Of a stretch of 55,921 nucleotides of DNA, positions 3,731-46,010 are shown piece after piece. Location of the stretch: the IMG/VR virus record IMGVR_UViG_2541047806_000003, positions 1 to 55,921 of that record. One strand, written 5' to 3'. The translations under genes and the position numbers were made by a program. Under the pieces are notes generated by a model, which was not told where the DNA came from, did no database searches, and worked only from the letters and a program-made list of their open reading frames with translations. The DNA is from a virus (Duplodnaviria > Heunggongvirae > Uroviricota > Caudoviricetes). Every line of letters begins with the position of its first letter. Position 1 is the first letter of the stretch.

Positions 3731-3746
3731 TGTGATCTGTGTTACA
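3731..3746. promoter_or_regulatory. CRP-like palindrome TGTGATCTGTGTTACA upstream of moron 1
   Basis: 9/10 match to TGTGA-N6-TCACA; part of recurrent CATTTTGTGATCTG motif. Confidence 0.3.
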
Positions 3747-3882: not shown

Positions 3883-4128
3883 ATGAAAAAACTAATTGTT
3901 GCTTGCATCTTATCAGCTCTGTCTTTTGGTGCTTTTGCTTCTGTAAATTCGACAGATAAGAGTGATGCTGGCACTGCTCAATATGGTGATACTGGCCTTG
4001 ATAACCAACGTTCGAGTTATTTCAATACTGACTCATGGAAAGAAAAACAACTACAAGGTAAAATTATTGACAGTGAATGTAATTTACCTATCCATTTTTC
4101 TGGTATAAATGATGGGTGTAAAAAATAA
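3883..4128 (+). CDS. Small secreted protein (moron between J and tail fibre)
   Basis: 81 aa from ATG 3883 with SD AAGGTGA; N-terminal signal peptide MKKLIVACILSALSFGAFA; opposite strand to tail genes; own terminator. Confidence 0.5.
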   Translation: MKKLIVACILSALSFGAFASVNSTDKSDAGTAQYGDTGLDNQRSSYFNTDSWKEKQLQGKIIDSECNLPIHFSGINDGCKK

Positions 4129-4140
4129 AAACAATGCATA

Positions 4141-4167
4141 AAAAACGGGGCTTATGCCCCGTTTTTT
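4141..4167. terminator. Bidirectional rho-independent terminator
   Basis: Stem AACGGGGC/GCCCCGTT, loop TTAT, A-run upstream and T-run downstream. Confidence 0.6.
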
Positions 4168-7100
4168 ATGCTGTCGTTGATGTTCTAAATGATCCGGTGC
4201 CTCTTGCTACTATCATTGTTGGAGAATACAACGCGGTACAATATGCGTATCCTTCAGATGATGATGTTTGAGGACAATATATTTTCCCGATAATATCTGA
4301 TGCTTTTAAACCAGAAAAAGCGCATTGCACTGTTAATGTGCATCCACCATAAGGCACGTAATATGAAATTGTTTTGTTTTTATCTCCGCAACTAAACGTT
4401 ACGTTATAAGTGGATCTATATTCACCAGACATTAATGAAATAGTCGCCATAAGCATAACTGATTTCGTCAATGCATTATCCGTGCTGTCTTTATATGTGA
4501 TGGTTGCGCTATAACTTCCGTTATGCCCAAGCACTCGATCTGGACCAACCCCCATGTTAGCAACGTCACCGACAAATGACTTTGCCTCTACTGTACCTTT
4601 AAACTTCCCGCTTGTGGCCTGAATCTCACCAGTGAATTTACCAGATGTTGCGTACACCGTACCGCGTACAGTGACGTTGTTGAACTCCGCATTGCCGTTT
4701 TTATTTAGCATCCAGCCAGCCGAACCAGCTTTATAGTTGGTTGACTGAATTTGCTGCGCAATCTTCGCGGTAGTGATTGATGCGTCTCTGATCCACGCAT
4801 CACGGATGTAGCAAGCACCGTTAGTAACATAGAACGGGGTCTGATAGGAGCCACCTGCCGCAGTCATAAGCACGAAACGGTCAACGAGGAAAATACACTG
4901 CGATTGAACGTTAGTCCCGCTACCAGTAAGGCCGAGCGACATTCCTGTAGCGTATTTCATACCGTTTTTATCAGTGGCAATCTTAATTGAATATGACGCA
5001 TCAACGTTACCTTTGAAGTCAGTCAGTGCTTTTGATGTCGTTTCTATCGCCGTTGTGTTTCCGTTAATAGTTACTTTCAACTGGTCGATTCTGGTTGACA
5101 ATGCCTCGTCTGCCGTTGCCATAGCCTGTGACCATTCCGTGATGCTTGAGTTTACATCGTCGAAAGATGCCGAGATCTGGCCAAATTTTTCCGCGCTTGA
5201 TGTTTCATGCGTAGAAAGTGCAGTTGACACTTCGGATACTTTCGAATTAATCGTACTGGTAAGCGATGAGTTAAGGCTGCTGATTGCGTCAGTGCGTGCA
5301 TTCTTCTCATCTGCGATCGCTTTATCCATCCTGGTTACGTTGCTTGTCACCTTGCTATCGAGCGTGGAAATTGACGCATTAACCCCGCTAATAGCTTCTG
5401 CGCGTGCGCTCGCCTCATCTGCGATTGCTTTATCAAGACGGGAAACGCTCGCGTCGGTTTTGCTTTCAAGACTACTGACGCTGGCGTTAACGTTGCTAAT
5501 AGCTTCTGCGCGTGCGCTCGCCTCATCTGCGATTGCTGTGTCTACCCTTGCTATTTCCGCTTTTGTTTTTGTTTGTCCTTTCCTGTATTTCGCCTCAATA
5601 ACAGTGCTCATCTTGCTTTGCGCCATTGAGTTATTAATAAGCGCCAGAGATGCGTTTTGCAGACTTGCTTTCGCCTGATCTATCTCGTCGCTGTTTTTAT
5701 CAACCTCACTTTTAACGCCGCCAAGCGTCGCGCTGATACCTGATATCGCCTGAGCACGTGCGCTTGATTCATCAGCGATAGCTTGATCAAGACGGCTAAC
5801 ACTGGCATTTGTGTTATTTTCAAGCGTTGTTAAATCAGCTTTAACCACTGTTATTGCGTCGCTTCTTGCCTGCGTTTCATCTGATATTGCATTATCGAGG
5901 CGCTTAACGCTGGCGTCAGTTTTCTTGTCAAGTGTTGAGATACTTGCGTTCACGTCGCTGATAGCCTGAGTACGCGCACTTGTTTCGTCTGCAATTGCCT
6001 GATCAAGACGGTTTACGCTGGCGTCAGTTTTCTTGTCAAGATTGCTTATTGAGGCATTTACACCGTTAATAGCTTCAGCGCGGGCGCTGGCCTCGTCAGC
6101 TACTGCGCGTTGCACATTAGAGATCTGACCTTTAAGGTTTGTGTCCATCACATTCATTTCTGCCGTGATGGTTTCCAGTGATTCCGCTGTCGCTTTTTTC
6201 TCTTCAGCGATAACGTTGTCAATGCGGTCAATTTCCGCTTTCGTCTCTGTCCTGCCTTTCTTGTACTGAGCGGTAAGAGTTACGCGAGTGTTAGTCTGTG
6301 CAAGCGAGTTATTAATAAGAGCAAGTGAGGCGTTTTGCAGACTTGCTTTTGCTTGCGCCAGTTCGCTGCCAACTTTTTCGCTAGACACCTCCAGCGAGTC
6401 GATTCTCGACTCATGCTGTCCAATATCATCGGCGTTTTCCTTAACTTTTTTATAAAGATCTTCCGTTTCTTTTTTGAGCGTATCAGTATCAGCTTTTATT
6501 GATCCTGTTTCTATGGTTAGGTTGTCAGTTTCAGTCCTTAAATCGTCAGTTATGTTGGTCAGATTATCAGTTGCAGTTTTGAGGTTGTCAGTAGCAGTTT
6601 TAAGGTCATTCGTAGCGCTTTCGATAAGATCAGTGCGGTCGCCTAGATCTTTAATGTCACCAACCATTTCTTTAAATTGTTTGGAATTCATTACGTCTTT
6701 GGTGACGTAATCGGTAATTTCATCAAAGTTTTCTGTTGGCTTACCTGACGCTTCCACAAAGTCAGACACACCAAAAGCGTTACGCGCGCGCACATAAACG
6801 TAATATGTGTGACCTGTATTCATGCCGCCAAACGTCCACTGATGACCACGCCCAGTATATTGTGCTTTAGTGGTTATTGATGCCGGATCAGTGATCTGCG
6901 TTTCACCTGAGTAATAAAACTCGTAACTGGTATCAGTGGTGAGCGTTGTTCTGCTGATCGGGTAAACTGTAGCCTGGAATACACCGGGAACCCAATTAAC
7001 GCCAACTGGGGCCGCTGGTGCGCCAATAACCAGATCGACAATGCTTTCCGCACCCTTCATGCCCGTGTCATTTCTGCCACGAATGCCTAATGAGTAGTTG

Positions 7101-9136
7101 CCAGCATCAATGCCATAAAAATCATAACTGTAATTCGTGGTTTCGTAGCTTTTAACTACAGCGCCTTCGGCGTTATACACGCGAATCTCAAAGGTCAGGC
7201 GACGCGTTGTCGTCTGTGTTTCCCATGTTGCGCGACATTGAACCGTTTCAGATCCAACGTTTAACACCTTCAGATTTTCAATGTTCGGCACGCGGAAGTG
7301 ATTAAGCGTGTCGTTATTGATCTCGAAGATTGCGCCATTATCGACTACGGCCTGCTTATGTGGATCATGCTGTGCGGCCTCGATGGTGTATACGCTGTTA
7401 TTTTCTGTTTCTGCTACACTGGTGATTCGACATAAAACGGGTTTTGCTGCGTTGGTTGATACAGCAAAAACAGTGCCGTTACGAATCCACGCCGGGGCGG
7501 CTGCAAGGGTGATAATGTTCCCGTTAACTCCGATGATCTGGTGTTTTTTAAATTTACCATCGCTATCAAGTAAGCTGATGGTGTCGCCAGCCGCGATATA
7601 TTCAGAATCAACCTTGTCGACCGTGATCGCTCTGCCATTGTTCGCCACGATGCGACCGCCTAAACGAGCGCCTGCGCGATTATTATCGAGGATCTCGATT
7701 ATATCCCCCGGCGTAAAGTGAATGGCGTCACGGGCCATTTTAAATGTGAATTTTGACGGCTCGCGTTTCGCTGTTTCGATCAGCCATTTACCAGCGCGGT
7801 GCGCTTGCCCGCGTGAAGTGCAACCGAACGCCTCCAACGTGGTTTCGTTATAACCATCACGGGCGATTAGTTTATCATCTGCGACATATTCTTTTGATTG
7901 CTCCCAGCCGTTTTCAGGGTCAGTCCAGGATACGATCACGGCGTTGTAGCATTCTGCGCGTGCGATACTTGAACGAGTAAACGCGCCATCAACGACGTTT
8001 GCATTTGTGATGGTGGCGATTGGATCTTGTGGCGCATCAATCATCACGGTAAGACGTTGTCCGTCCCATAACGCGATACCACGGAACATACCTGCGATGT
8101 TGTCCAGTAGGTCGCGGGCGCTCATTTGCTCCGTAATGTAAGCGTTAAGCGTCATGCGAGGTTCAAGGCCACCATAGCCATCATCAACCAACTGATCGCA
8201 GTATTGAGAAAGCACGTACAAAGCGCCATCATCAACATCAATGTAACCAGCATGTCGAGCAAGTCCAAAGCGCTCGTTTTTAACCAGATACCGGAAAAGC
8301 CATGCAGGGTTATTGGTATACGCCTTTTTAAATCCACCAAGCCATAAACCTGAATATGTGCGCGTTTCAGGGTTGTAGTTGTCAGGCACATCAACAATCA
8401 GGCCGCGAAGGTGATAGGTGCGGGTAGGCGTATCAGTATACTGATCATGGTCAATTACGGCGCCAGCTACAGCGGTATGAGGATAAGACAGATTATCATC
8501 TATTATTTCGCTGTAACTACTCCACCGCGTATCATTCCGCAATAGATCGCCGTTGCTGTCTGGTGTTATGCGACGAACGCGAATATCAAACGGTTTTTCA
8601 TCCGGCGCTTTAATGATGTGAGCTTCCAGGTATTCACCGCTTTGTTTACCAGGGCCAATGTGTATGTCTTTAATCAGCGACCACGTAGAAGATGATGACG
8701 GTTTAACATCAACCATCAACATGACGGATGTATTATATTGATTGCCCTTTTCATCTGACTGAACGAGAGCATCAACACCAAGATTCAACCTGACGCGGGT
8801 AACGTTTGGATCTGAAACAGTCCTGATTATTGGTGTGTCGTGAGTTACCTTTGCGTTGACAATAACGGTTGACTCAATGGCGTTAAAACCATTAATCGGC
8901 GATTGGTCAGCCGTGCCGTTGCGCCAGGCTATACTAATCCCCGGAATTGATGTATTCCCGTTTGCGTCAGTAACAGGAGTGTCATTAAGCATCACGTCAT
9001 TCAATGGCGCTTTCTGGTTTACCGGACCGTATATCGGCCCTTCGCTGAGAATATCTAAAACACGATAAAACTGTTTGTGATACAGGTTATCGTTCAATAA
9101 TGTTGGTGTTTTGGCTTTGCCGCCGCCGCTACTCAT
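4166..9136 (-). CDS. Host-specificity / central tail fibre protein (lambda J-like) with long coiled-coil repeat extension
   Basis: 1656 aa; N-terminal two thirds resemble lambda gpJ (e.g. YSGLWLGGFKKAYTNNPAWLFRYL); residues about 920-1400 are heptad-like repeats (DASVSRLDKAIADEASARAEAISGVNASIS...). Confidence 0.85.
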   Translation of the reverse strand: MSSGGGKAKTPTLLNDNLYHKQFYRVLDILSEGPIYGPVNQKAPLNDVMLNDTPVTDANGNTSIPGISIAWRNGTADQSPINGFNAIESTVIVNAKVTHDTPIIRTVSDPNVTRVRLNLGVDALVQSDEKGNQYNTSVMLMVDVKPSSSSTWSLIKDIHIGPGKQSGEYLEAHIIKAPDEKPFDIRVRRITPDSNGDLLRNDTRWSSYSEIIDDNLSYPHTAVAGAVIDHDQYTDTPTRTYHLRGLIVDVPDNYNPETRTYSGLWLGGFKKAYTNNPAWLFRYLVKNERFGLARHAGYIDVDDGALYVLSQYCDQLVDDGYGGLEPRMTLNAYITEQMSARDLLDNIAGMFRGIALWDGQRLTVMIDAPQDPIATITNANVVDGAFTRSSIARAECYNAVIVSWTDPENGWEQSKEYVADDKLIARDGYNETTLEAFGCTSRGQAHRAGKWLIETAKREPSKFTFKMARDAIHFTPGDIIEILDNNRAGARLGGRIVANNGRAITVDKVDSEYIAAGDTISLLDSDGKFKKHQIIGVNGNIITLAAAPAWIRNGTVFAVSTNAAKPVLCRITSVAETENNSVYTIEAAQHDPHKQAVVDNGAIFEINNDTLNHFRVPNIENLKVLNVGSETVQCRATWETQTTTRRLTFEIRVYNAEGAVVKSYETTNYSYDFYGIDAGNYSLGIRGRNDTGMKGAESIVDLVIGAPAAPVGVNWVPGVFQATVYPISRTTLTTDTSYEFYYSGETQITDPASITTKAQYTGRGHQWTFGGMNTGHTYYVYVRARNAFGVSDFVEASGKPTENFDEITDYVTKDVMNSKQFKEMVGDIKDLGDRTDLIESATNDLKTATDNLKTATDNLTNITDDLRTETDNLTIETGSIKADTDTLKKETEDLYKKVKENADDIGQHESRIDSLEVSSEKVGSELAQAKASLQNASLALINNSLAQTNTRVTLTAQYKKGRTETKAEIDRIDNVIAEEKKATAESLETITAEMNVMDTNLKGQISNVQRAVADEASARAEAINGVNASISNLDKKTDASVNRLDQAIADETSARTQAISDVNASISTLDKKTDASVKRLDNAISDETQARSDAITVVKADLTTLENNTNASVSRLDQAIADESSARAQAISGISATLGGVKSEVDKNSDEIDQAKASLQNASLALINNSMAQSKMSTVIEAKYRKGQTKTKAEIARVDTAIADEASARAEAISNVNASVSSLESKTDASVSRLDKAIADEASARAEAISGVNASISTLDSKVTSNVTRMDKAIADEKNARTDAISSLNSSLTSTINSKVSEVSTALSTHETSSAEKFGQISASFDDVNSSITEWSQAMATADEALSTRIDQLKVTINGNTTAIETTSKALTDFKGNVDASYSIKIATDKNGMKYATGMSLGLTGSGTNVQSQCIFLVDRFVLMTAAGGSYQTPFYVTNGACYIRDAWIRDASITTAKIAQQIQSTNYKAGSAGWMLNKNGNAEFNNVTVRGTVYATSGKFTGEIQATSGKFKGTVEAKSFVGDVANMGVGPDRVLGHNGSYSATITYKDSTDNALTKSVMLMATISLMSGEYRSTYNVTFSCGDKNKTISYYVPYGGCTLTVQCAFSGLKASDIIGKIYCPQTSSSEGYAYCTALYSPTMIVARGTGSFRTSTTA
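4940..6380. repeat. Intragenic tandem repeat region within J-like gene
   Basis: Exact 41-bp repeat TAATAGCTTCTGCGCGTGCGCTCGCCTCATCTGCGATTGCT at 5388-5428 and 5507-5547 plus many degenerate copies encoding the coiled coil. Confidence 0.6.
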
Positions 9137-9149
9137 GGTTTTTCTCCTG

Positions 9150-9680
9150 TTAACTTACAACGTCTAAGGCGTCTCTATTGTTGCTTGTGTCTATGCCTAA
9201 CGATCCGACGTTTGAACCTATTTTCATTTCACCTAATAGTATTGGCACTGGTCTACCCTGGCCCACCTTGTTTTCAATGCTGGTGTAGGTGTTGTTCGTT
9301 ATGGTGTTATCTTGTGCGCTTTCTGCCGATGTTTTTATCTTCATGTTGCGGGACATAAAGATTGAGAACGCAACGCTAACCACCGAAACACCAATCAGGA
9401 TCCAGCCTACAACACCAATCCCAGCAATACCGCCTTCAACTACTGGCGCAATAATGACGGTAGTTCCGTCAGGGTATTTACTATTAACCGCTGCCGGGGC
9501 CGTCTTTTCGTTATAATCTTTCCCGGCAATCCGTAACCGCAAAGGTGTATTTAAAAAAGCCTTCTTGAATTCCTGATTCTGCGCGGTCAATAAGCGAAGC
9601 CCTTGCGCTGGCGTTTCAACGTTTAAACACACTTTGCTGTAATATCTTCGAAGATTGCCCGTAAATCTAAATTTGAGCAT
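9150..9680 (-). CDS. Tail assembly protein (lambda I-like); 5' end uncertain
   Basis: 176 aa, C-terminal hydrophobic segment, position between K-like and J-like genes; ORF overlaps K-like 3' end by 58 nt. Confidence 0.65.
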   Translation of the reverse strand: MLKFRFTGNLRRYYSKVCLNVETPAQGLRLLTAQNQEFKKAFLNTPLRLRIAGKDYNEKTAPAAVNSKYPDGTTVIIAPVVEGGIAGIGVVGWILIGVSVVSVAFSIFMSRNMKIKTSAESAQDNTITNNTYTSIENKVGQGRPVPILLGEMKIGSNVGSLGIDTSNNRDALDVVS

Positions 9681-10354
9681 TTATCAGATCTCCATATTGA
9701 ATGCGTTTGTCGAACATAAGCGGGCCGCATTTGCTCGCGGCGGCTTAACAGTCCGGCATTGTCATGATGCAAAACAGTGTTATCGCCCAGGTAAATCATC
9801 GCGTGGCATGGGTCAGCGCCTTTGAACGGCTGCCTGATTATTACGTCACCTGGCTGGATGCTTTGCGCATCAACCTGATAAAACCCGTTTCGCGGCAAGT
9901 TTTTTAAATACAGGTTTTCACCGCGAAGCCACCAGCCATCAAGGCGCTCGAAGTCCGGTAGATCCACGCCACAAAGGTGATATGCGTCGCGGAAAAGCGC
10001 GTAGCAGTCTGTTTTCCCGTGCTCAAATTTTCGGCCTAACAGGTGCGCTACCGGGCGGAATTTTCTAACCCTGCCACCGGAGCATAAAAGCCACGGGAGG
10101 CCGGAAATAACCTGTTGTTGTCGATCCAGCGCAGACAATACCGGAATATCATCAACGTGAGAGTGAAAAACGGCGGTTATAACGCCTAATTCGTCAGCTT
10201 TGATGTAATCGTCCGGCGAAATTTTGAAGCTGTTGTATGGCGTTTCAGATACGTTAGCGCACGGGTAAAAATATTCGTTATTTATCACCAGGCCGCAAAC
10301 TTCCTCACGCGGGTGAGCTGCGGCGTAGCGAACCATTTTGTCTTCAAGTGCCAT
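9623..10354 (-). CDS. Tail tip assembly protein (lambda K-like; MPN/JAMM plus NlpC/P60-like)
   Basis: 243 aa; JAMM-like motif AVFHSHVDD; position between L-like and I-like. Confidence 0.8.
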   Translation of the reverse strand: MALEDKMVRYAAAHPREEVCGLVINNEYFYPCANVSETPYNSFKISPDDYIKADELGVITAVFHSHVDDIPVLSALDRQQQVISGLPWLLCSGGRVRKFRPVAHLLGRKFEHGKTDCYALFRDAYHLCGVDLPDFERLDGWWLRGENLYLKNLPRNGFYQVDAQSIQPGDVIIRQPFKGADPCHAMIYLGDNTVLHHDNAGLLSRREQMRPAYVRQTHSIWRSDKCSNLDLRAIFEDITAKCV

Positions 10355-10356
10355 AA

Positions 10357-11061
10357 TTAGCCCACCTTACTTGAACCGGGGAAACAGGAAATTGGTAACG
10401 GATTTGGACGCGGGAAACGTAAACGACAACCGCTCAGACGGTGGCTACATCTGTCGGCTTTAGGATCGCTTGTCGGCTCGTCTTTATCGTTTGCTACTGG
10501 TCCGCCAGCGTACATACACCCGTCGCCTCTGTATTGCCACTGGCAAACGTCAGCAAGGATGGTGCGCCCAGGGATGACAGCTTTATCTGCATCAATTGGC
10601 GTTGACAGTTCATACTGCACCTGATCCGCTGTTTCTTCGCTCATTGCTTCAACGACGTAAAAAGATACAGCCTCAATAGATGGATCTGCGTCTGGATTAC
10701 CGTTAGGGAAGTTAACGGCGTCAAGATATTTCACCTCCACCTGGCGGCGCGTAACCTTCATTCCTCTAAGGTCGTTAAAATCGTTGTTCATCCCCGTAAT
10801 GAGTCCGCCGATATTGGCTACAACCATTTGAGGCCGTGAATAAACACCCTCATTTTTCATTTCGAAGCCCGTCGCCTCGATCGGGTAGCTGTTGTAAGCT
10901 ACTCCCTTCCAGATAACCTGGCCGTAATAGCCGTTCGCGCCGGAATGGAAGCGGATAACCTCGCCTCCCAGGGGAGTAAGGTCCAGTTCAAATAAGTCAA
11001 TGACCGCGCCAACTCCGGCATCGACGGAATCAATAATCATCTCTCTCGGAATATTGCGCAT
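10357..11061 (-). CDS. Minor tail protein (lambda L-like)
   Basis: 234 aa; C-terminal Cys cluster CSHRLSGCRLRF as in gpL; gene order M-L-K-I-J. Confidence 0.85.
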   Translation of the reverse strand: MRNIPREMIIDSVDAGVGAVIDLFELDLTPLGGEVIRFHSGANGYYGQVIWKGVAYNSYPIEATGFEMKNEGVYSRPQMVVANIGGLITGMNNDFNDLRGMKVTRRQVEVKYLDAVNFPNGNPDADPSIEAVSFYVVEAMSEETADQVQYELSTPIDADKAVIPGRTILADVCQWQYRGDGCMYAGGPVANDKDEPTSDPKADRCSHRLSGCRLRFPRPNPLPISCFPGSSKVG

Positions 11062-11079
11062 TTTCTCACCTTGTCATTT

Positions 11080-11095
11080 TGTGATCTGCGTCACG
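11080..11095. promoter_or_regulatory. CRP-like palindrome TGTGATCTGCGTCACG upstream of moron 2
   Basis: 9/10 match to TGTGA-N6-TCACA consensus; about 60-70 bp upstream of candidate promoter start. Confidence 0.3.
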
Positions 11096-11116
11096 CTAAA
11101 TCATACCAAAATGGAT

Positions 11117-11145
11117 TGATCGTGGTTTTTACAATATGTATATTT
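11117..11145 (+). promoter_or_regulatory. Candidate sigma70 promoter for moron 2 (TTGATC-N17-TATATT)
   Basis: -35/-10 hexamers with 17-bp spacer read directly from sequence. Confidence 0.3.
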
Positions 11146-11190
11146 TACTCAAACGAAGGGGAAGTTAACAAAATGGCGCGGAGGTGCGTT

Positions 11191-11379
11191 ATGACTGAAA
11201 AGCTATGGAAGTTGACGGTATTCATGACAGACGGTAGGGAAAAGGTTATCGCCCTGTATGACGACGAGGGGGAAGCATTGGTTGACGCGCTTTTACTTGC
11301 TGAGGATGACCGCCTTTTGGGATACCAGATCGAACCTGTCAAATATGATGCTAACAAAAATGAAAAAATACAGTCTTGA
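11191..11379 (+). CDS. Hypothetical small acidic protein (moron 2, gene 1)
   Basis: 62 aa from ATG 11191 with SD GGAGGTG; in-frame upstream ATG at 11174 also possible. Confidence 0.4.
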   Translation: MTEKLWKLTVFMTDGREKVIALYDDEGEALVDALLLAEDDRLLGYQIEPVKYDANKNEKIQS

Positions 11380-11707
11380 TGTGTGGTTAAGTGGTAGCAA
11401 GGAGTGTTTCGGATTATTTGATAGCGAAGAAGTAGCCCTGGAAGAAGGCAGGATTCTTGAATGTAGTTTAGGCCATCCAGTGAAATATACTGCTAATCCG
11501 GTACAGATAGTTGATGAGGTGGAAGATATGAACCCGAAAGATATTAATGTTAACTTCAATGTTAATTTTGCAGACTCTATGGATCAGTCTTGCCCTGGTG
11601 AAATACACGCAAAAGGTTTCCCGGCTGACGATCCAGAAGCAAAACGCGAATACGAAAAAGCTGCGAAAGATTTCTGTATCGATAACCTTTCAGCATTCGA
11701 TAAATAA
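11360..11707 (+). CDS. Hypothetical acidic protein (moron 2, gene 2)
   Basis: 115 aa from ATG 11360 (MKKYSLDVWLSGSKE...); overlaps gene 1 stop region. Confidence 0.45.
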   Translation: MKKYSLDVWLSGSKECFGLFDSEEVALEEGRILECSLGHPVKYTANPVQIVDEVEDMNPKDINVNFNVNFADSMDQSCPGEIHAKGFPADDPEAKREYEKAAKDFCIDNLSAFDK

Positions 11708-11716
11708 GGCGGCAAC

Positions 11717-11965
11717 ATGGGGCGGCGCAATCACGGTGATTATGTGTACACGTTGAAACAGGCCGCCCGCCTCATCGGTTATCATGAACACGAATTTATT
11801 GATTTGCTGATTGAGCGCGGGATACTGTACCAGGTCTGCTTAACGCTGTACCCTAAAGCGAAATACCTACAGGAAAAGTTATTTATCATCATGACGGATG
11901 AAAACCAGGTTAATCACTCATTCGTCACTGATAAGGGCGTTAATTATCTGCGTGATAACTTATAG
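11717..11965 (+). CDS. Small helix-turn-helix DNA-binding protein (moron 2, gene 3)
   Basis: 82 aa; YTLKQAARLIGYHEHEFIDLLIERGIL resembles excisionase/MerR-type HTH. Confidence 0.5.
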   Translation: MGRRNHGDYVYTLKQAARLIGYHEHEFIDLLIERGILYQVCLTLYPKAKYLQEKLFIIMTDENQVNHSFVTDKGVNYLRDNL

Positions 11966-12095
11966 GTGACTGATTATAAAAATAGAAGTTTTGGCGCTAA
12001 TAATAATGGGGTTGATAGTATTTGGCGTTCATGCTGTAGATCTGGACTGGAAAACGATAGCAGAAAATATAGCATTAATGGAAATAGAATAAAAA

Positions 12096-12125
12096 TAACC
12101 CCGCTTCGCGCGGGGTCGTGTTTAT
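12096..12125. terminator. Bidirectional terminator
   Basis: Stem CCCCGC/GCGGGG with A-run upstream and T-rich tract downstream. Confidence 0.5.
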
Positions 12126-12319
12126 ACGCCATCAACCAAAAATAAAACCTCCTTCCCTTCCCGGGATCTACACCCAACGTACCCATCACCAACGTCGTGA
12201 AGATACCATATATCGCCGTTGTCAGCTTTTACAGTAAGGTCGTTGATCTCATAGTCGTCAAACAATGTAAAAGCGTAAGTTTTGTCAACTACACAAGTCC
12301 CGTACATAACAACCCCCAT
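12122..12319 (-). CDS. Small protein, distant member of paralogous family also found at 32.3-33.9 kb
   Basis: 65 aa; shares D-x-G-D/H-x-W-Y motif (ADNGDIWYLHD) with ORFs 32353, 32573, 32822, 33034, 33725; start abuts M-like stop. Confidence 0.45.
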   Translation of the reverse strand: MGVVMYGTCVVDKTYAFTLFDDYEINDLTVKADNGDIWYLHDVGDGYVGCRSREGKEVLFLVDGV

Positions 12320-12672
12320 TAGCCAACAACTTGCTCAAACGTTGCGTTTAGCGTGTACAAAGGCCCGTCTTTAGTCATGCTCCATTGCCGACAGACAAAA
12401 AGCCTTTGCACGTTATCCATTGACGGCGACCAGTAAAAAGCCTCGACCGCGCCGCGCGCCCTCAAGAATGCTTCCGCCTGGATTGCTACGTTTCCACCAT
12501 CACCACATCCGGCGCTACTGCCTTTAAACACCAGGGTGTAGCTATCAAGCAATGGATTGATACCTTTTACCTGTCTTTGCTCATAACCATCGCCCAGCTT
12601 AACAACAGATACGTCTGGCTTCCTGGTCACGCTGTAGCTTCTTTGCGGCGTCCATCTGAACACTTCCGGCAT
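12319..12672 (-). CDS. Minor tail protein (lambda M-like)
   Basis: 117 aa; VKLGDGYEQRQ and C-terminal ATFEQVVG match gpM pattern (lambda ends AEFEQVVN). Confidence 0.85.
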   Translation of the reverse strand: MPEVFRWTPQRSYSVTRKPDVSVVKLGDGYEQRQVKGINPLLDSYTLVFKGSSAGCGDGGNVAIQAEAFLRARGAVEAFYWSPSMDNVQRLFVCRQWSMTKDGPLYTLNATFEQVVG

Positions 12673-12705
12673 AAAACCCCCACAAGTTACATTTTGTATA
12701 TATCT

Positions 12706-12731
12706 TTACGCGCTTCTACGCGAAAAATAAG
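12706..12731. repeat. Conserved 26-bp element TTTACGCGCTTCTACGCGAAAAATAA (copy 1, upstream of M-like gene)
   Basis: 24/26 identical to 25055-25080 upstream of portal gene; contains direct TACGCG repeats. Confidence 0.35.
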
Positions 12732-12743
12732 ATCATTGTCACA
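12727..12743. promoter_or_regulatory. Perfect palindrome ATCATTGT-C-ACAATGAT (operator-like)
   Basis: 8-bp inverted arms read directly; about 30 bp upstream of candidate -35 of moron 3. Confidence 0.35.
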
Positions 12744-12770
12744 ATGATTATAGCTAGTTTACAAAATGGC

Positions 12771-12799
12771 TTCACATAGCACGCAACAAGATGTATATA
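12771..12799 (+). promoter_or_regulatory. Candidate sigma70 promoter for moron 3 (TTCACA-N17-TATATA)
   Basis: Hexamers with 17-bp spacer, TG immediately upstream of -10. Confidence 0.3.
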
Positions 12800-12839
12800 G
12801 AAAGCAAGAAGAAAGTAGTACCAACGAAGGAGGCTCAAA

Positions 12840-12995
12840 ATGAAACGCTATGTAGTAGTAATGCTAAATAACGCATTCGAACAAGTGGAAATAGCAATCG
12901 TTAAGGGTTTCGACGACGCATTCAAATACGGTCAATTCATGATGAATGCGAAAGAAGATGAATACCGGGACTTCTTCCTGAAGGCACTTAACTAA
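12840..12995 (+). CDS. Hypothetical small acidic protein (moron 3, gene 1)
   Basis: 51 aa (MKRYVVVMLNNAFEQVEIAIVKGFDDAF...), strong SD AAGGAGG; below 60-aa ORF-track cutoff. Confidence 0.4.
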   Translation: MKRYVVVMLNNAFEQVEIAIVKGFDDAFKYGQFMMNAKEDEYRDFFLKALN

Positions 12996-13012
12996 GGATG
13001 ATGGGGTGAGTT

Positions 13013-13267
13013 ATGAAACTGGTAGCGATTGACAGAAATCTGAAAGCACAGAAAAACGCACAGGACCGGATCATCAAGAAAGGTAAGGAATTACTTAAAG
13101 CCTTTCTGAGAAAAGAAGTTTACCCCAAAAAGTTACGCGACGGTTACGGATACAAAATGGATATCAATCTTGATTGGAGGCTGTTTAGCGAAGATTTGAA
13201 GGTTTGGTTAATTGTTGAGCACCATGCCTATAACAAGTTATGTGGCGTGAAAGGCACTCATAAGTGA
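13013..13267 (+). CDS. Hypothetical basic protein (moron 3, gene 2)
   Basis: 84 aa, SD GGGGTGAG, 17 nt after gene 1 stop. Confidence 0.5.
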   Translation: MKLVAIDRNLKAQKNAQDRIIKKGKELLKAFLRKEVYPKKLRDGYGYKMDINLDWRLFSEDLKVWLIVEHHAYNKLCGVKGTHK

Positions 13268-13326
13268 GTCGAGATATTCGAAAGGGGATATATCGCGCGG
13301 AATGGTCGTTTATAAATACGAAAAAT

Positions 13327-13359
13327 AACCCCGGCATTGCACCGGGGTTTAGTTTATTT
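13327..13359 (+). terminator. Rho-independent terminator of moron 3
   Basis: Stem AACCCCGG/CCGGGGTT, loop CATTGCA, then T-rich tract. Confidence 0.6.
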
Positions 13360-15696
13360 GCGGCGAGGTTGCAACATTCCGCCTGGTCTTTGAGATTCCC
13401 TTGTTATCATTTTCATGGCTACACGTTCCATTGTTAATTCAAGTCTGCGGCTGTCTTCGTCGCTGAATCCGTTCGTGGTCTGAATGCTGATACTGACAGG
13501 CATACTAATACCGCCACCGCCGCCAATATCACGGCCCGGAATAACTCTGCCGTTCTCGCCAGGGATCATATATTGATTGCCGTTAGATGTCTGGAATAGC
13601 TCCGGCCTGTTGTGTTCCCCTACGCGGTACATATTACCACCAATGACGCTACCACCATTAAAGCGACCGCCGCCGAAAATTGACGTAGCCAGCGACATGA
13701 TCGCAGTGAGCGCCGCCGAACCAGCCGCCGCCCAGCTACCGCCAGTTGACGCCGCAGTTGCCGCCGCTGCTGGGGCCGCCGCCGCAGCAATGCTTCCCTG
13801 AGCTGCTACCGCGCTTGCTGTTGTACTTGTTTGCGTGGCCTTGCTTTGTGTCTCCATCATGATCTGATCTGCTATCCAGTTTGCAGCTATGTCTGAGAGT
13901 CTGTTACCGATATTGCCGAGTATATTGCTTCCTAAGTTAGCAAAAACATCACTCAATGATTGAGTGCCGTTTAACAGGCCAACAAGCGCATTACTCATTC
14001 CGCCTTTAAGGCCATTAACACAATCACCGATAAGGCCGTTTGTGTCGCTTTGCGCCTGCCATTGTTCCCATTTCAGATCGCGGATCTGTTGCTCATAGGC
14101 TAACAATTCCTGTTTCTGTTGCGCTTCAGTAGCGCCCAGGTCTATAAGCATTTGCTTACGGATGGCCCATTCATTTTGCGCCTGCTGGATGGGGTCAACT
14201 TCGCCTTTTAGCTGATCCATCGGGCTTACTATTTGTGACCATTTATCACGCAATTCATCTACCGGAATTTGTGCTAATTCTTCTTTCAGTTCCTTGCCGA
14301 TCCCTTTTTGCGCGGCGCGGTACTCAAGGAGCGTGATTTTACCCTGGGCAAATGCAGCATCAATGGCCTTGCCGTTCTCCAACGCTTTGCGCATGGCGGC
14401 GGCGTCTTTGTTGTACTGATCAGAAACGCTTATACCTTTGTCACCAAGCCGATCAGCTTCCGATTTCTTCTCTTTTTTCTGTTTTTTCGGCTTGTCTACT
14501 GGCTTGTCGAATCCGGTAATCGCTCCGTCATTGGCAGCATTCTGTTCATTTTTCCTTGCTTCTTCTGTAGCCTGGATTGCTGCGGTCAGATCATCCTGTA
14601 GTTGCATGACCTTGCCAACGGTCTTCCCGTATTTCTTCTCGTAGTTGCTGTTATATTCGTCGGTTTGCTCTCCTACTACCTCCTTCATCCATTTATAGCC
14701 ATCCATTAGCGCCTTGATTGGCGTCACCATTGCGATGATCTTCTCTGCCACCTCTCCAGCCTTAACAGCCACATCATCAAACATGTCGATAAATTCGCTA
14801 CCAGCCGTTTTGAGTGTGTCGAAGCAGGTTTTAGCGAATTTAGCGCCATCGCCAAGCCCTTTAACGCCTTTCGTGATCAAGTCGATAGCTGAAACAACGC
14901 CATCTGACACGCCAAAAAGATCATCCAACTGCTCAACAAGGCCCATAATTTCTACTTTAAGCTCATTGATAGCCATGCCGGATGTGCGCGGCAACTGAGC
15001 AAACTTATCGTTTGTTTCCTGCGTAGCCGCCTGTATTGCGTTAACCATCCTTTCAGCCGTGATCTTGCCGTCCAGCATTTCGGCGCGGAACTGGCCCATT
15101 GATAATCCCATATGGCGGGCCATTGTTTGTACGATGGTCGGCGTATTTTCAAGCAGGCTGTTAAATTCTTCGGCACGAAGAACACCGCCGTCGATAGACT
15201 GACGGAATTGACGCATTGAGTTAGACATCTGTTCCGCTGACGCGCCGCCTAATGCACCCATTTTCTGAATAGTGCCAACCAGGTTAAGCAATTGCCCTTC
15301 CGTAGCGGAGGTGTTTTTTAGTGAGATAGCCAGGCCTTGCCATAATTCGCCAGTATCTTTCAGGCTCTGCCCCGTCTCCCTGGATATTGCTTTCAGGCCG
15401 TCGAAAACCCGTCCGGCGGACTCCGCATCGCCCGTAAGCATTTTGATTTTTACGCGAAGCATTTTTGCTTGCTCCGCCATATCCATAAATTGGCGCACAG
15501 CCTCCGCAGCAATTAGCAGATGGATAACCCTGGTCAGTGCCTTGATGGATGTTTTCAGGGTGTTTACCTGGCGGTCAGCCTGTTTTGCGCCGCGCTCTAT
15601 ACGATCAAAGGCCTGGTCTGCCTGTCGTTGTGCAACGAGAAGTTGACCAGTTTTCGCATCAACTTCGTAATAAATTGTACCTACACTGGTAGCCAT
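13354..15696 (-). CDS. Tail tape measure protein
   Basis: 780 aa, alpha-helical, Ala/Gly-rich C-terminal part, position between chaperone and M-like. Confidence 0.85.
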   Translation of the reverse strand: MATSVGTIYYEVDAKTGQLLVAQRQADQAFDRIERGAKQADRQVNTLKTSIKALTRVIHLLIAAEAVRQFMDMAEQAKMLRVKIKMLTGDAESAGRVFDGLKAISRETGQSLKDTGELWQGLAISLKNTSATEGQLLNLVGTIQKMGALGGASAEQMSNSMRQFRQSIDGGVLRAEEFNSLLENTPTIVQTMARHMGLSMGQFRAEMLDGKITAERMVNAIQAATQETNDKFAQLPRTSGMAINELKVEIMGLVEQLDDLFGVSDGVVSAIDLITKGVKGLGDGAKFAKTCFDTLKTAGSEFIDMFDDVAVKAGEVAEKIIAMVTPIKALMDGYKWMKEVVGEQTDEYNSNYEKKYGKTVGKVMQLQDDLTAAIQATEEARKNEQNAANDGAITGFDKPVDKPKKQKKEKKSEADRLGDKGISVSDQYNKDAAAMRKALENGKAIDAAFAQGKITLLEYRAAQKGIGKELKEELAQIPVDELRDKWSQIVSPMDQLKGEVDPIQQAQNEWAIRKQMLIDLGATEAQQKQELLAYEQQIRDLKWEQWQAQSDTNGLIGDCVNGLKGGMSNALVGLLNGTQSLSDVFANLGSNILGNIGNRLSDIAANWIADQIMMETQSKATQTSTTASAVAAQGSIAAAAAPAAAATAASTGGSWAAAGSAALTAIMSLATSIFGGGRFNGGSVIGGNMYRVGEHNRPELFQTSNGNQYMIPGENGRVIPGRDIGGGGGISMPVSISIQTTNGFSDEDSRRLELTMERVAMKMITRESQRPGGMLQPRRK

Positions 15697-15823: not shown

Positions 15824-16483
15824 ATGAAACGGTTAGCAAAAGTGGCAATGATTGCGGCGGTATTGGGTCTGGTTGGTTGCAATGAGGATAATGAAAAAGC
15901 GCCTATAGTGACCAATCAAGAGCAACAAGCATTAGCAGAGAAAAATGCTAAATGGCTTGCAGAACAACAAGCAAAACAAGCCGCATACGATGCACAGTTA
16001 GAAAAAGAAAATGCTGGTAAACAGTGGCTTGTAGTTGAAAGAAAAGATGATATGCAGGACGCAAAAAACGTATTCCTTTTTGTGAAAGCAGAACAATTCA
16101 GCGGAAGTCTTGATGCTTTCCCGACACTGAAGGCACAGGATAAGAATAAACCGGTATTAACAATCGCTTGCCAGGGTAATAAAACAAAAATGTTCGTAGC
16201 ATGGTCACACCATGTAACTGACGCCGGGGACACTACTTATATTAACTACCGGATCGGCGTTCACAAAGCTGTAGCTACTGAGTGGTGGCGGTCAACTAAT
16301 TATAAAGCTCTTGGATTATGGGACGGCAAAAAAGCCATCCCAATGATTAAAAAACTGGTTAACGAAAAACAATTCATCATTGAAGTAGTGCCGGAAGCTG
16401 GCGACATTGAGAAAGCAGTGTTTAACATTGATGGTCTTTATAACCACATCGACAAAGTGAAAAACGCTTGCAACTGGAATTAA
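15824..16483 (+). CDS. Lipoprotein (moron 4, gene 1)
   Basis: 219 aa; signal peptide plus lipobox LVGC; SD GGTGGG. Confidence 0.6.
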   Translation: MKRLAKVAMIAAVLGLVGCNEDNEKAPIVTNQEQQALAEKNAKWLAEQQAKQAAYDAQLEKENAGKQWLVVERKDDMQDAKNVFLFVKAEQFSGSLDAFPTLKAQDKNKPVLTIACQGNKTKMFVAWSHHVTDAGDTTYINYRIGVHKAVATEWWRSTNYKALGLWDGKKAIPMIKKLVNEKQFIIEVVPEAGDIEKAVFNIDGLYNHIDKVKNACNWN

Positions 16484-16493
16484 GGGGTAAATC

Positions 16494-16868
16494 ATGAAAA
16501 AAATAATCAAAGCGGTTCTCATTGGTGTTATGGCTTTAGCTCTTACAGGGTGCGCAAGATCAACTGATTTCGTTAAGTTAGCTGATAAAAATTTGCAAGT
16601 TGGAATGACTTGTGAGCAAGTGAATAAAATAATGGGGGAACCACAAAGAATCGAGCATGACGGTAATTATAGTTATCACGTATGGTATTCAGTAACCAGC
16701 ACGATAGGATTTACTTACATGGATGTTGAAGAATTATCCCCTTCAAGGGTTATCGCAAAGTTTGATAACTGCATCCTAAAAGAATGGAAAGATCGCAGTA
16801 AGGCAAAGTCTGTATACAATACAATCACACACAGTTCACCAGGTACAGCAATTAAAGATTTCAATTAG
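16494..16868 (+). CDS. BamE/SmpA-OmlA-like lipoprotein (moron 4, gene 2)
   Basis: 124 aa; lipobox LTGC; LQVGMTCEQVNKIMGEP resembles BamE motif. Confidence 0.55.
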   Translation: MKKIIKAVLIGVMALALTGCARSTDFVKLADKNLQVGMTCEQVNKIMGEPQRIEHDGNYSYHVWYSVTSTIGFTYMDVEELSPSRVIAKFDNCILKEWKDRSKAKSVYNTITHSSPGTAIKDFN

Positions 16869-45918: not shown

Positions 45919-46010
45919 TCCATTTTGTATACTTTTTTAAAATATTTTATATGCCATTGATATTTAAATAATAAATAACGTTTCCTGTTTACGTTTTGGT
46001 GTTTTCCAGG

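Follow-up and report, generated by a model that had tools for sequence, protein, structure and literature searches.

What are a few small plus-strand genes doing in the middle of a minus-strand tail operon? The question is raised by a Caudoviricetes genome, IMG/VR record IMGVR_UViG_2541047806_000003, of which positions 1 to 55,921 were analyzed (hereafter the window). A preliminary description of this DNA placed an oppositely oriented cassette between the lambda-like tail genes L and M. It listed a candidate sigma70 promoter, a near-consensus CRP-like site, three open reading frames (ORFs) of 62, 115 and 82 amino acids (aa), the last with a helix-turn-helix (HTH), and a bidirectional terminator, and took the whole for an inserted moron. 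Each of these elements was found again where it had been described, on the plus strand against minus-strand neighbors and with ORFs of exactly those sizes. The interpretation has shifted. We consider it fairly probable that the cassette is a lineage-fixed, moron-type, CRP-responsive accessory operon of mEp021-like phages, independent of the late genes and with a role in conflict or host modulation.

ORF1 (11191–11379), ORF2 (11360–11707) and ORF3 (11717–11965), all on the plus strand, lie between the tail tip gene L (10357–11061, minus strand; Pfam PF05100 Phage_tail_L, 1.8e-71) and, on the right, a conserved 65-aa ORF (12122–12319, minus strand; phrog_3249) and the tail tip gene M (12319–12672, minus strand; Phage_min_tail, 1.2e-27). 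Based on megablast, the window matches seven phages, all of the mEp021 group, at 83–89% identity, and it is a member of this published ("mEpimmI") coliphage group, which consists of Nus-dependent, non-lambdoid temperate coliphages (PMC11893012). The records of mEp021, mEp515 and MagusPhagus show the same plus-strand genes between L and M, annotated as hypothetical proteins, with the last gene of the mEp021 cassette annotated as a "putative antirepressor".

Genes were mapped by tblastn in 50 relatives, including 44 further IMG/VR loci chosen by their ORF2 family. The order L, ORF1, ORF2, ORF3, 65-aa ORF, M, 51-aa ORF, ParE-like gene and tape measure gene was found in all 50, with the exception of two loci that lack the 51-aa ORF and two in which a non-homologous gene replaces ORF1. 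Of 5426 complete E. coli genomes, 35 have the cassette DNA, in each case once and on the chromosome, and a "KilAC-like antirepressor" is among the 59 manually defined core genes of 48 genomes (PMC11893012). The shared position in all relatives, together with the KilAC-like gene on the published core list, indicates that the operon is a fixed feature of the clade and no recent insertion. The word "inserted", in the sense of a sporadic acquisition, is contradicted by the same position in the 50 relatives and the 35 complete E. coli genomes. The preliminary description had itself named, as an observation that would speak against it, the occurrence of the same genes as standard genes at this site in related phages, and this is essentially what the relatives and the core list (PMC11893012) show.

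Within this constant order the genes evolve at different rates. Among the relatives, ORF3 is 89–100% identical, as are L and M (the range for L alone is 85–100%), compared with 44–98% for ORF1 and 57–100% for ORF2, and the alleles of ORF1 and ORF2 reassort independently of each other and of ORF3. The operon of mEp021 and the other mEpimmI phages (mEp021_74/73/71; GenBank MH706966, PP180001-5, PP925836) has orthologous genes in the same order and position, at 83–89% DNA identity. Relative to mEp021, the window has the 62-aa ORF1 allele, its own mosaic of alleles and a membrane-peptide gene without an ATG, and lacks an extra 75–81-aa gene that is present in mEp021 and seven other fetched loci. 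Published mEpimmI work assigns these genes no function, promoter or regulation. From J to ORF2 the window is 100% identical to locus L023, and from ORF3 to the tape measure gene it is 99–100% identical to loci L012–L016. It is a recombinant with its joint between ORF2 and ORF3, and the cassette holds the mosaic boundary.

The classical morons of lambdoid phages (lambda lom and bor; HK97 and HK022), in the definition of Hendrix and Juhala, are autonomous units with their own promoter and terminator. They have an atypical composition, lie between genes that are adjacent in related phages, and are sporadic among close relatives. Here too the neighbors are adjacent in related phages, the unit has its own terminator, and the composition deviates, with a GC content of 0.41–0.43 in the cassette versus 0.49–0.52 in L, K, M and the tape measure gene. 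The same dip is seen in two other plus-strand cassettes (12.8–13.3 kb and 15.8–16.9 kb). Sporadic occurrence, in contrast, is not observed: the operon is fixed in the clade, carried by 50 of 50 relatives, and only its internal gene content varies. The designation as a moron thus holds with regard to terminator, GC content and junction, and probably promoter, but not with regard to distribution.

The outgroups place this junction in context. M and L abut or overlap in Stx/lambdoid phages and in Erwinia phages, whose L protein is 45–69% identical. The closest outgroup is Salmonella phage ES18 (L 71% and M 68% identical), in which gp24 and the opposite-strand gp25 occupy the M–L junction and gp22 the junction between the tape measure gene and M; the depositors labeled all of these "possible moron", with terminators flanking. 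ES18 resembles the window in the junctions used, in the homologous tail-tip block and in the small opposite-strand genes bounded by terminators, and differs in having one or two genes where the window has a four-gene operon (the fourth gene is described below). No sequence similarity was found between gp22, gp24 or gp25 and ORF1–3. Because possible morons unrelated to ORF1–3 occur there in ES18, the M–L junction is a known landing site for accessory genes, with content that differs between lineages. A constant place between L and M throughout the clade could also be expected of tail assembly accessory genes, such as chaperones, that belong to the tail module. However, the operon is on the opposite strand with its own terminator, a putative promoter and a lower GC content, the ES18, Erwinia and lambdoid phages lack it although their L and M are homologous, its internal genes have been gained and lost and include an HNH insertion, and Pfam and PHROG searches of the cassette ORFs matched no tail or structural family. 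A tail assembly function is therefore extremely improbable.

The sequence between L and ORF1 contains a putative sigma70-type promoter, TTGATC-17-TATATT (11116–11144, plus strand), preceded by CCAAAATGG-A. Regulatory conservation was evaluated in an alignment of 37 distinct L–ORF1 intergenic sequences. The relatives are divergent (dS, synonymous divergence, 0.35–0.9 in the flanking genes), so conservation of the promoter and of the CRP-like site is informative, unlike a consensus scan alone. The -10 hexamer TATATT is kept in 37 of 37 sequences and the 17-nt spacer in 36, and the -35 hexamer reads TTGAT(C/A/T). A strong promoter-like site at 45920 on the minus strand has the same upstream arrangement as the cassette promoter.

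Upstream of the promoter, the CRP-like site TGTGATCTGCGTCACG (11080–11095) matches TGTGA-N6-TCACA at 9 of 10 core positions. Chance alone would give about one site of this quality in 56 kb (1.58 expected). TGTGA is found in 36 of the 37 sequences and TCACG in 34, and the 6-nt spacer takes 12 forms; conserved half-sites around a free spacer are what a dimer-binding site would be expected to show. If transcription starts 7 nt past the -10 element, as we assume, the site is centered at -62.5/-63.5, near the class-I position of -61.5. An RNA hairpin at 11080–11095, considered in place of a protein site, folds no better than shuffled sequence (z -1.2 and -0.3 for the two strands) and was rejected. 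Across the 56-kb window, seven CRP-like sites with at most one mismatch were counted (3731, 11080, 32336, 38456, 41858, 46715 and 50142), where 1.58 are expected and none of 100 shuffles reached seven. Those at 11080, 38456 and 41858 have the common form TGTGATC-N3-RTCACG, those at 3731 and 32336 have TTACA as the second half-site, and a longer composite, CCATT(T/A)TGTGATC..., is common to three sites (3725, 11074 and 38450). Conserved GATC Dam sites lie both in the CRP-like half-site TGTGATC (11082–11085) and in the -35 hexamer TTGATC (11117–11120), and methylation-sensitive expression through them is thus conceivable.

An 18-bp palindrome, TACAATAT-GT-ATATTTTA (11130–11147), overlaps the -10 element. 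In relatives it takes the form TACAATAT-GT-ATATT(G/T)TA, and in about half of them it is the perfect ATATTGTA. It is conserved in relatives, is unique within the window at up to 3 mismatches, and may be an operator. As no other copy is present in the genome, it was ruled out as the operator of the CI-like repressor. A consensus scan also gave a minus-strand promoter-like site, TTGTTA-18-TAAAAT (11171 to 11142), from which transcription of L-K-I-J could start again past the terminator.

The leader contains the motif ACAAAATGG (11168–11176, plus strand), kept in 36 of 37 relatives, which includes the ATG at 11173 that is an alternative start of ORF1. This 9-mer has 16 copies in the window versus 1.0 expected (for example at 12758, 15737/15765, 32294/32321, 38414/38480, 45920, 46763, 50737 and 11168). 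Copies outside coding sequence are preceded by T[AT]T, and two pairs are palindromic at a distance of 16 nt. The motif lies directly against a -35 hexamer or else, when reversed (CCATTTTGTAAAC / CCATTTTGTATAA), looks like an extended -10 element, and some copies are start-codon contexts. At the other end of the operon, a bidirectional intrinsic terminator (12097–12117) has a hairpin of -16.3 and -16.8 kcal/mol on the two strands; the U-tract that follows is good for the minus strand and weaker for the plus strand. The mEp021 and mEp515 records also carry a terminator annotation in this position. An Rfam scan of 10800–13500 found no known RNA family, the sole match being one chance-level snoRNA.

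The coding content was evaluated through the ratio of nonsynonymous to synonymous divergence (dN/dS) across relatives. It is 0.22–0.29 for ORF1, 0.20 for the whole of ORF2 and 0.10 for ORF3. Within ORF2 the N-terminal part (ORF2-N; dN/dS 0.23, dN 0.25) differs from the C-terminal part (dN/dS 0.08, dN 0.048); for comparison, the tail genes have values of 0.04 (L, with dN 0.03) and 0.065 (M). Values of 0.08–0.29 argue that all three ORFs are real genes. ORF1 and ORF2-N change about 5–7 times faster than the tail proteins, yet they are under purifying selection.

ORF1 (phrog_29559, 5.6e-46) is a small, fast-evolving, acidic protein (isoelectric point, pI, 4.4) with a beta-beta-alpha-beta type domain. 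Its Shine–Dalgarno (SD) sequence GGAGGTG lies 6 nt upstream of the start; the in-frame ATG at 11173 would give 68 aa and is the sole start available in two relatives. The 51–73-aa ORF1 family carries the name "transporter" at NCBI (RefSeq WP_086611599.1, more than 80 clusters), for which we found no support in sequence, predicted fold or families. ORF1 is paralogous to residues 1–50 of ORF2 (BLASTP 6e-5, hhalign 5.4e-5).

ORF2 (phrog_38567; pI 4.4, likewise acidic) has a variable N-half (residues 1–55) and a near-invariant C-module (residues 57–115, ADSMDQSCPGEIHAKGFPADDPEAKREYEKAAKDFCIDNL). In an AlphaFold (AF2) model the N-domain is beta-beta-alpha-beta at a per-residue confidence score (pLDDT) of about 90, and the C-part is below 60 except for one helix. 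An internal SD, which reads GAGGTGGA in the window and AAGGTGGA in the majority of relatives, precedes Met57 (11528) by 6 nt and is conserved in 19 of 21 sequence contexts. A 121-kb phage contig (L051) encodes a stand-alone 60-aa version of the C-module that is 82% identical, directly upstream of a membrane-peptide gene; a scan for relatives of this protein (P0067) found none. Based on the split into variable and constant parts, the internal SD with Met57 and the stand-alone copy, ORF2 has the appearance of a fusion, and separate translation of its C-module may occur as well.

The ORF1 and ORF2 families comprise 86 and 58 clusters, all from E. coli or Shigella, and an exhaustive search with a hidden Markov model of ORF2 against 1.84 billion representatives gave only 15 matches, the long ones being repeat-protein noise. 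Both are orphan families limited to these phages. Small, acidic, fast-evolving orphans resemble many anti-defence proteins, and ORF1 and ORF2 might inhibit host restriction or immunity early in the lytic cycle, expressed on infection rather than from the prophage. On the other hand, a late-region site on the opposite strand with terminator insulation is the classic layout of a prophage-expressed moron, no homology to known anti-defence proteins was found, and the fold matches bearing on this idea fall short of significance. We consider this explanation improbable.

The preliminary description counted three genes and overlooked a fourth. In most relatives a hydrophobic peptide of 38–49 aa (MKIEVLALIIMGLIVFGVHA...) with an AGGTGA SD follows directly after ORF3, and in the window a 38-codon frame for such a peptide (IKIEVLALIIMGLIVFGVHAVDLDW...) is kept at 11976–12092 (plus strand; ORF4). 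Its start is ATG in most relatives that keep the gene, and ATA, with the frame intact, in the window and its closest relatives. The ratio of nonsynonymous to synonymous differences (pN/pS) is 0.25 in this frame versus 0.93 in the other two, and of 51 loci about 30 retain the gene and about 15 have deleted it. ORF4 is thus a fourth gene of the ancestral operon whose start codon was lost in the window phage. A 59-aa GTG-initiated ORF at 11966–12145 was rejected as a gene based on its pN/pS of about 0.93, compared with 0.25 in the peptide frame.

Some relatives carry optional extras: an HNH endonuclease, genes of 67 and 58 aa after ORF3 and, between ORF2 and ORF3, a gene of 77–81 aa. The membrane-peptide gene was also found, at 60% identity, in two IMG/VR phage contigs of about 120 kb (L051, 3971–4301; L063, 2995–3138), and these copies indicate that small cassette genes move between unrelated phages. 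The C-module and the membrane peptide, adjacent in L051, were considered as an obligate pair; this was rejected, since the sister contig L063 encodes only the peptide and ORF2 is kept without it in about 15 mEpimmI relatives.

ORF3 is a stand-alone KilAC/ANT domain (Pfam PF03374, residues 10–82) that scores 29.9 bits against a curated cut-off of 25.3, and its RefSeq orthologues are named "antirepressor". The modeled structure (pLDDT 75) has an HTH with a beta wing. The predicted fold is probably a MerR/excisionase-like winged helix, a putative DNA-binding fold that the preliminary description had proposed for the last ORF. The protein is a single domain, without the N-terminal Bro-N, KilA-N, AntA or Rha partner of the typical architecture, and beyond the clade its only resemblance is to C-terminal domains of Rha/Ant proteins (30–38% identity). 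A scan of one genome per species gave one marginal unrelated match, and no PDB entry matched ORF2 or ORF3 by sequence with an E-value under 0.28. ORF3 has the TxKG motif as T71-D-K-G74, with T71, D72 and G74 invariant and K73 replaced by N in 2 of 8 aligned sequences; the AKxLxL motif described for CreP and P1 KilA is matched approximately (A16-A-R-L-I-G).

Two studied proteins share the absence of an N-terminal partner, and TxKG, with ORF3. CreP of A. baylyi, a stand-alone KilAC protein of 103 aa, has a bacteriostatic effect and makes cells filament, in E. coli as well (bioRxiv 10.1101/2024.01.05.574328), and the KilAC half of Listeria AriS on its own suppresses SOS, with RecA as the probable route (PMC9043618). 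ORF3 is smaller (82 aa, compared with 103 aa for CreP and about 115 aa for the AriS KilAC half), lies in a coliphage tail region and is a distant relative of both; we set it beside CreP by description only. As ORF3 keeps TxKG and is not basic, and given the activities of the tested KilAC domains, an effector role is a serious rival to that of a simple autoregulator. ORF3 would then be toxin-like, acting on a host protein to inhibit growth or division or to modulate SOS, with the ORF2 C-module as partner or neutralizer and ORF1 and ORF2-N as sensors, in an abortive-infection or takeover device. The near-invariance of ORF3 and the ORF2 C-module and their adjacency in all relatives fit such a pair. 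Set against this, the kinship to CreP and AriS is distant, neither Pfam nor PADLOC matched a toxin or defence model, the alleles of ORF1 and ORF2 do not travel together, nor with ORF3, and the modeled fold looks like that of DNA-binding domains. We hold the effector explanation to be unlikely, although it merits attention.

The family name suggests another role. ORF3 might inactivate a CI-like repressor and tie induction to cyclic AMP (cAMP)-CRP instead of SOS. The mEpimmI repressor is without a RecA cleavage site and lysogens are not inducible by ultraviolet light (PMC11893012), so some other induction route is needed, and the family is called "antirepressor" in both Pfam and RefSeq. The name, however, stems from multidomain Ant proteins whose N-terminal domains ORF3 lacks, and the KilAC half of AriS is not its phage-regulating half (PMC9043618). 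No LexA box was seen by eye in the cassette promoter, where the palindrome is of the form ACA..TGT and not CTG..CAG, and a CRP-activated constitutive antirepressor would destabilize lysogeny. We regard an antirepressor module as quite improbable.

We therefore return to the reading of the cassette as a CRP-responsive accessory operon, of which the architecture and conservation are observed and the expression timing, CRP dependence, autoregulation and biological role are what we infer. Host RNA polymerase would transcribe the operon apart from the late operon, most probably in the prophage state or soon after infection, and cAMP-CRP would stimulate this transcription. Repression could perhaps act via the 18-bp palindrome over the -10 element, with ORF3 as the simplest candidate to bind it. 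In the late phase of growth, read-through of the tail operon would run antisense to the cassette and silence it. The fast change of ORF1 and ORF2-N under purifying selection suggests that they bind or inhibit variable partners in phage–host or phage–phage conflict (exclusion, anti-defence or host modulation), and the ORF2 C-module and ORF3 would supply the constant part.

Several points weigh against this reading. Presence throughout the clade is atypical for a dispensable moron. The promoter consensus scan alone performed at chance, with 6 sites found and 5.7 expected, and the class-I spacing of the CRP-like site is only approximate because the transcription start is assumed. The minus-strand TTGTTA-18-TAAAAT overlaps the palindrome, which may thus equally be two overlapping divergent -10 elements and not an operator. 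ORF3 is neutral and not basic (pI 6.9), and the tested KilAC domains act on host proteins, not as repressors (PMC9043618; bioRxiv 10.1101/2024.01.05.574328). PADLOC, NCBIfam and Pfam searches of ORF1–3 and ORF4 gave no defence, toxin–antitoxin or named-family match other than KilAC for ORF3. A bolder version, which we find doubtful, would make the cassette a new conflict system, with diversifying ORF1 and ORF2-N as sensors, the invariant ORF2 C-module and KilAC protein as an effector that arrests division or SOS, an optional membrane peptide and catabolite control, that is, a prophage exclusion or abortive-infection device outside current catalogues.

The cassette is one of several in the lambda-like tail block, where J (4166–9136), I (9150–9680), K (9623–10354) and the tape measure gene (13354–15696) are all on the minus strand. 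Between M and the tape measure gene, a second reverse-oriented cassette (12840–13267, plus strand) encodes a 51-aa ORF and then an 84-aa ParE-like toxin (PF24732, 9e-12; RefSeq "ParE family toxin-like protein"). The ParE-like gene is present in 50 of 50 relatives and the 51-aa ORF in 48, followed in some by variable genes (HNH, zinc ribbon), and the two are a candidate toxin–antitoxin pair in the tail operon. The 51-aa ORF, which has no family, was tested for kinship with ORF1 and ORF2-N and is unrelated (hhalign E = 0.28 and 0.36). A third cassette (15824–16868, plus strand), also reverse-oriented and low in GC, separates the tape measure gene from the tail genes upstream of it. It encodes a 219-aa VasI-like protein (PF11319, 1.2e-15) together with a 124-aa ORF whose match to DUF7738 is below threshold.

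A further reverse-oriented ORF (3883–4128, plus strand), between the side fibre gene and J, has an N-terminal signal/lipobox-like sequence, MKKLIVACILSALSFGAFA, and occupies the position of the Lpp exclusion gene in mEp phages. No homologue was found in a collection of 50,697 phage records that includes the sequenced mEp phages, and it was rejected as a homologue of the published Lpp proteins, to which no similarity was found. The Lpp/Cor-type superinfection-exclusion genes of mEpimmI phages are likewise reverse-oriented accessory genes in the tail region, and the ORF at 3883–4128 is preceded by a composite motif, CCATTTTGTGATCTG.GT.AC, that it shares with the cassette. Lpp/Cor-type products are lipoproteins, whereas the cassette proteins are cytoplasmic and acidic.

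The operon has already been sequenced and annotated in a described phage group, and what is offered here is a candidate list rather than a discovery. The mEpimmI phages are as prevalent as lambdoid ones in the human faecal collection from which they came (PMC11893012). Every member has four reverse-oriented accessory cassettes in its tail block, and the KilAC protein is found only in the present one. If the prophage expresses the operon under CRP control, it would link the carbon status of the host to a phage exclusion or host-modulating function, and it would offer a convenient system for studying, in E. coli, the stand-alone KilAC domain, which is poorly understood.

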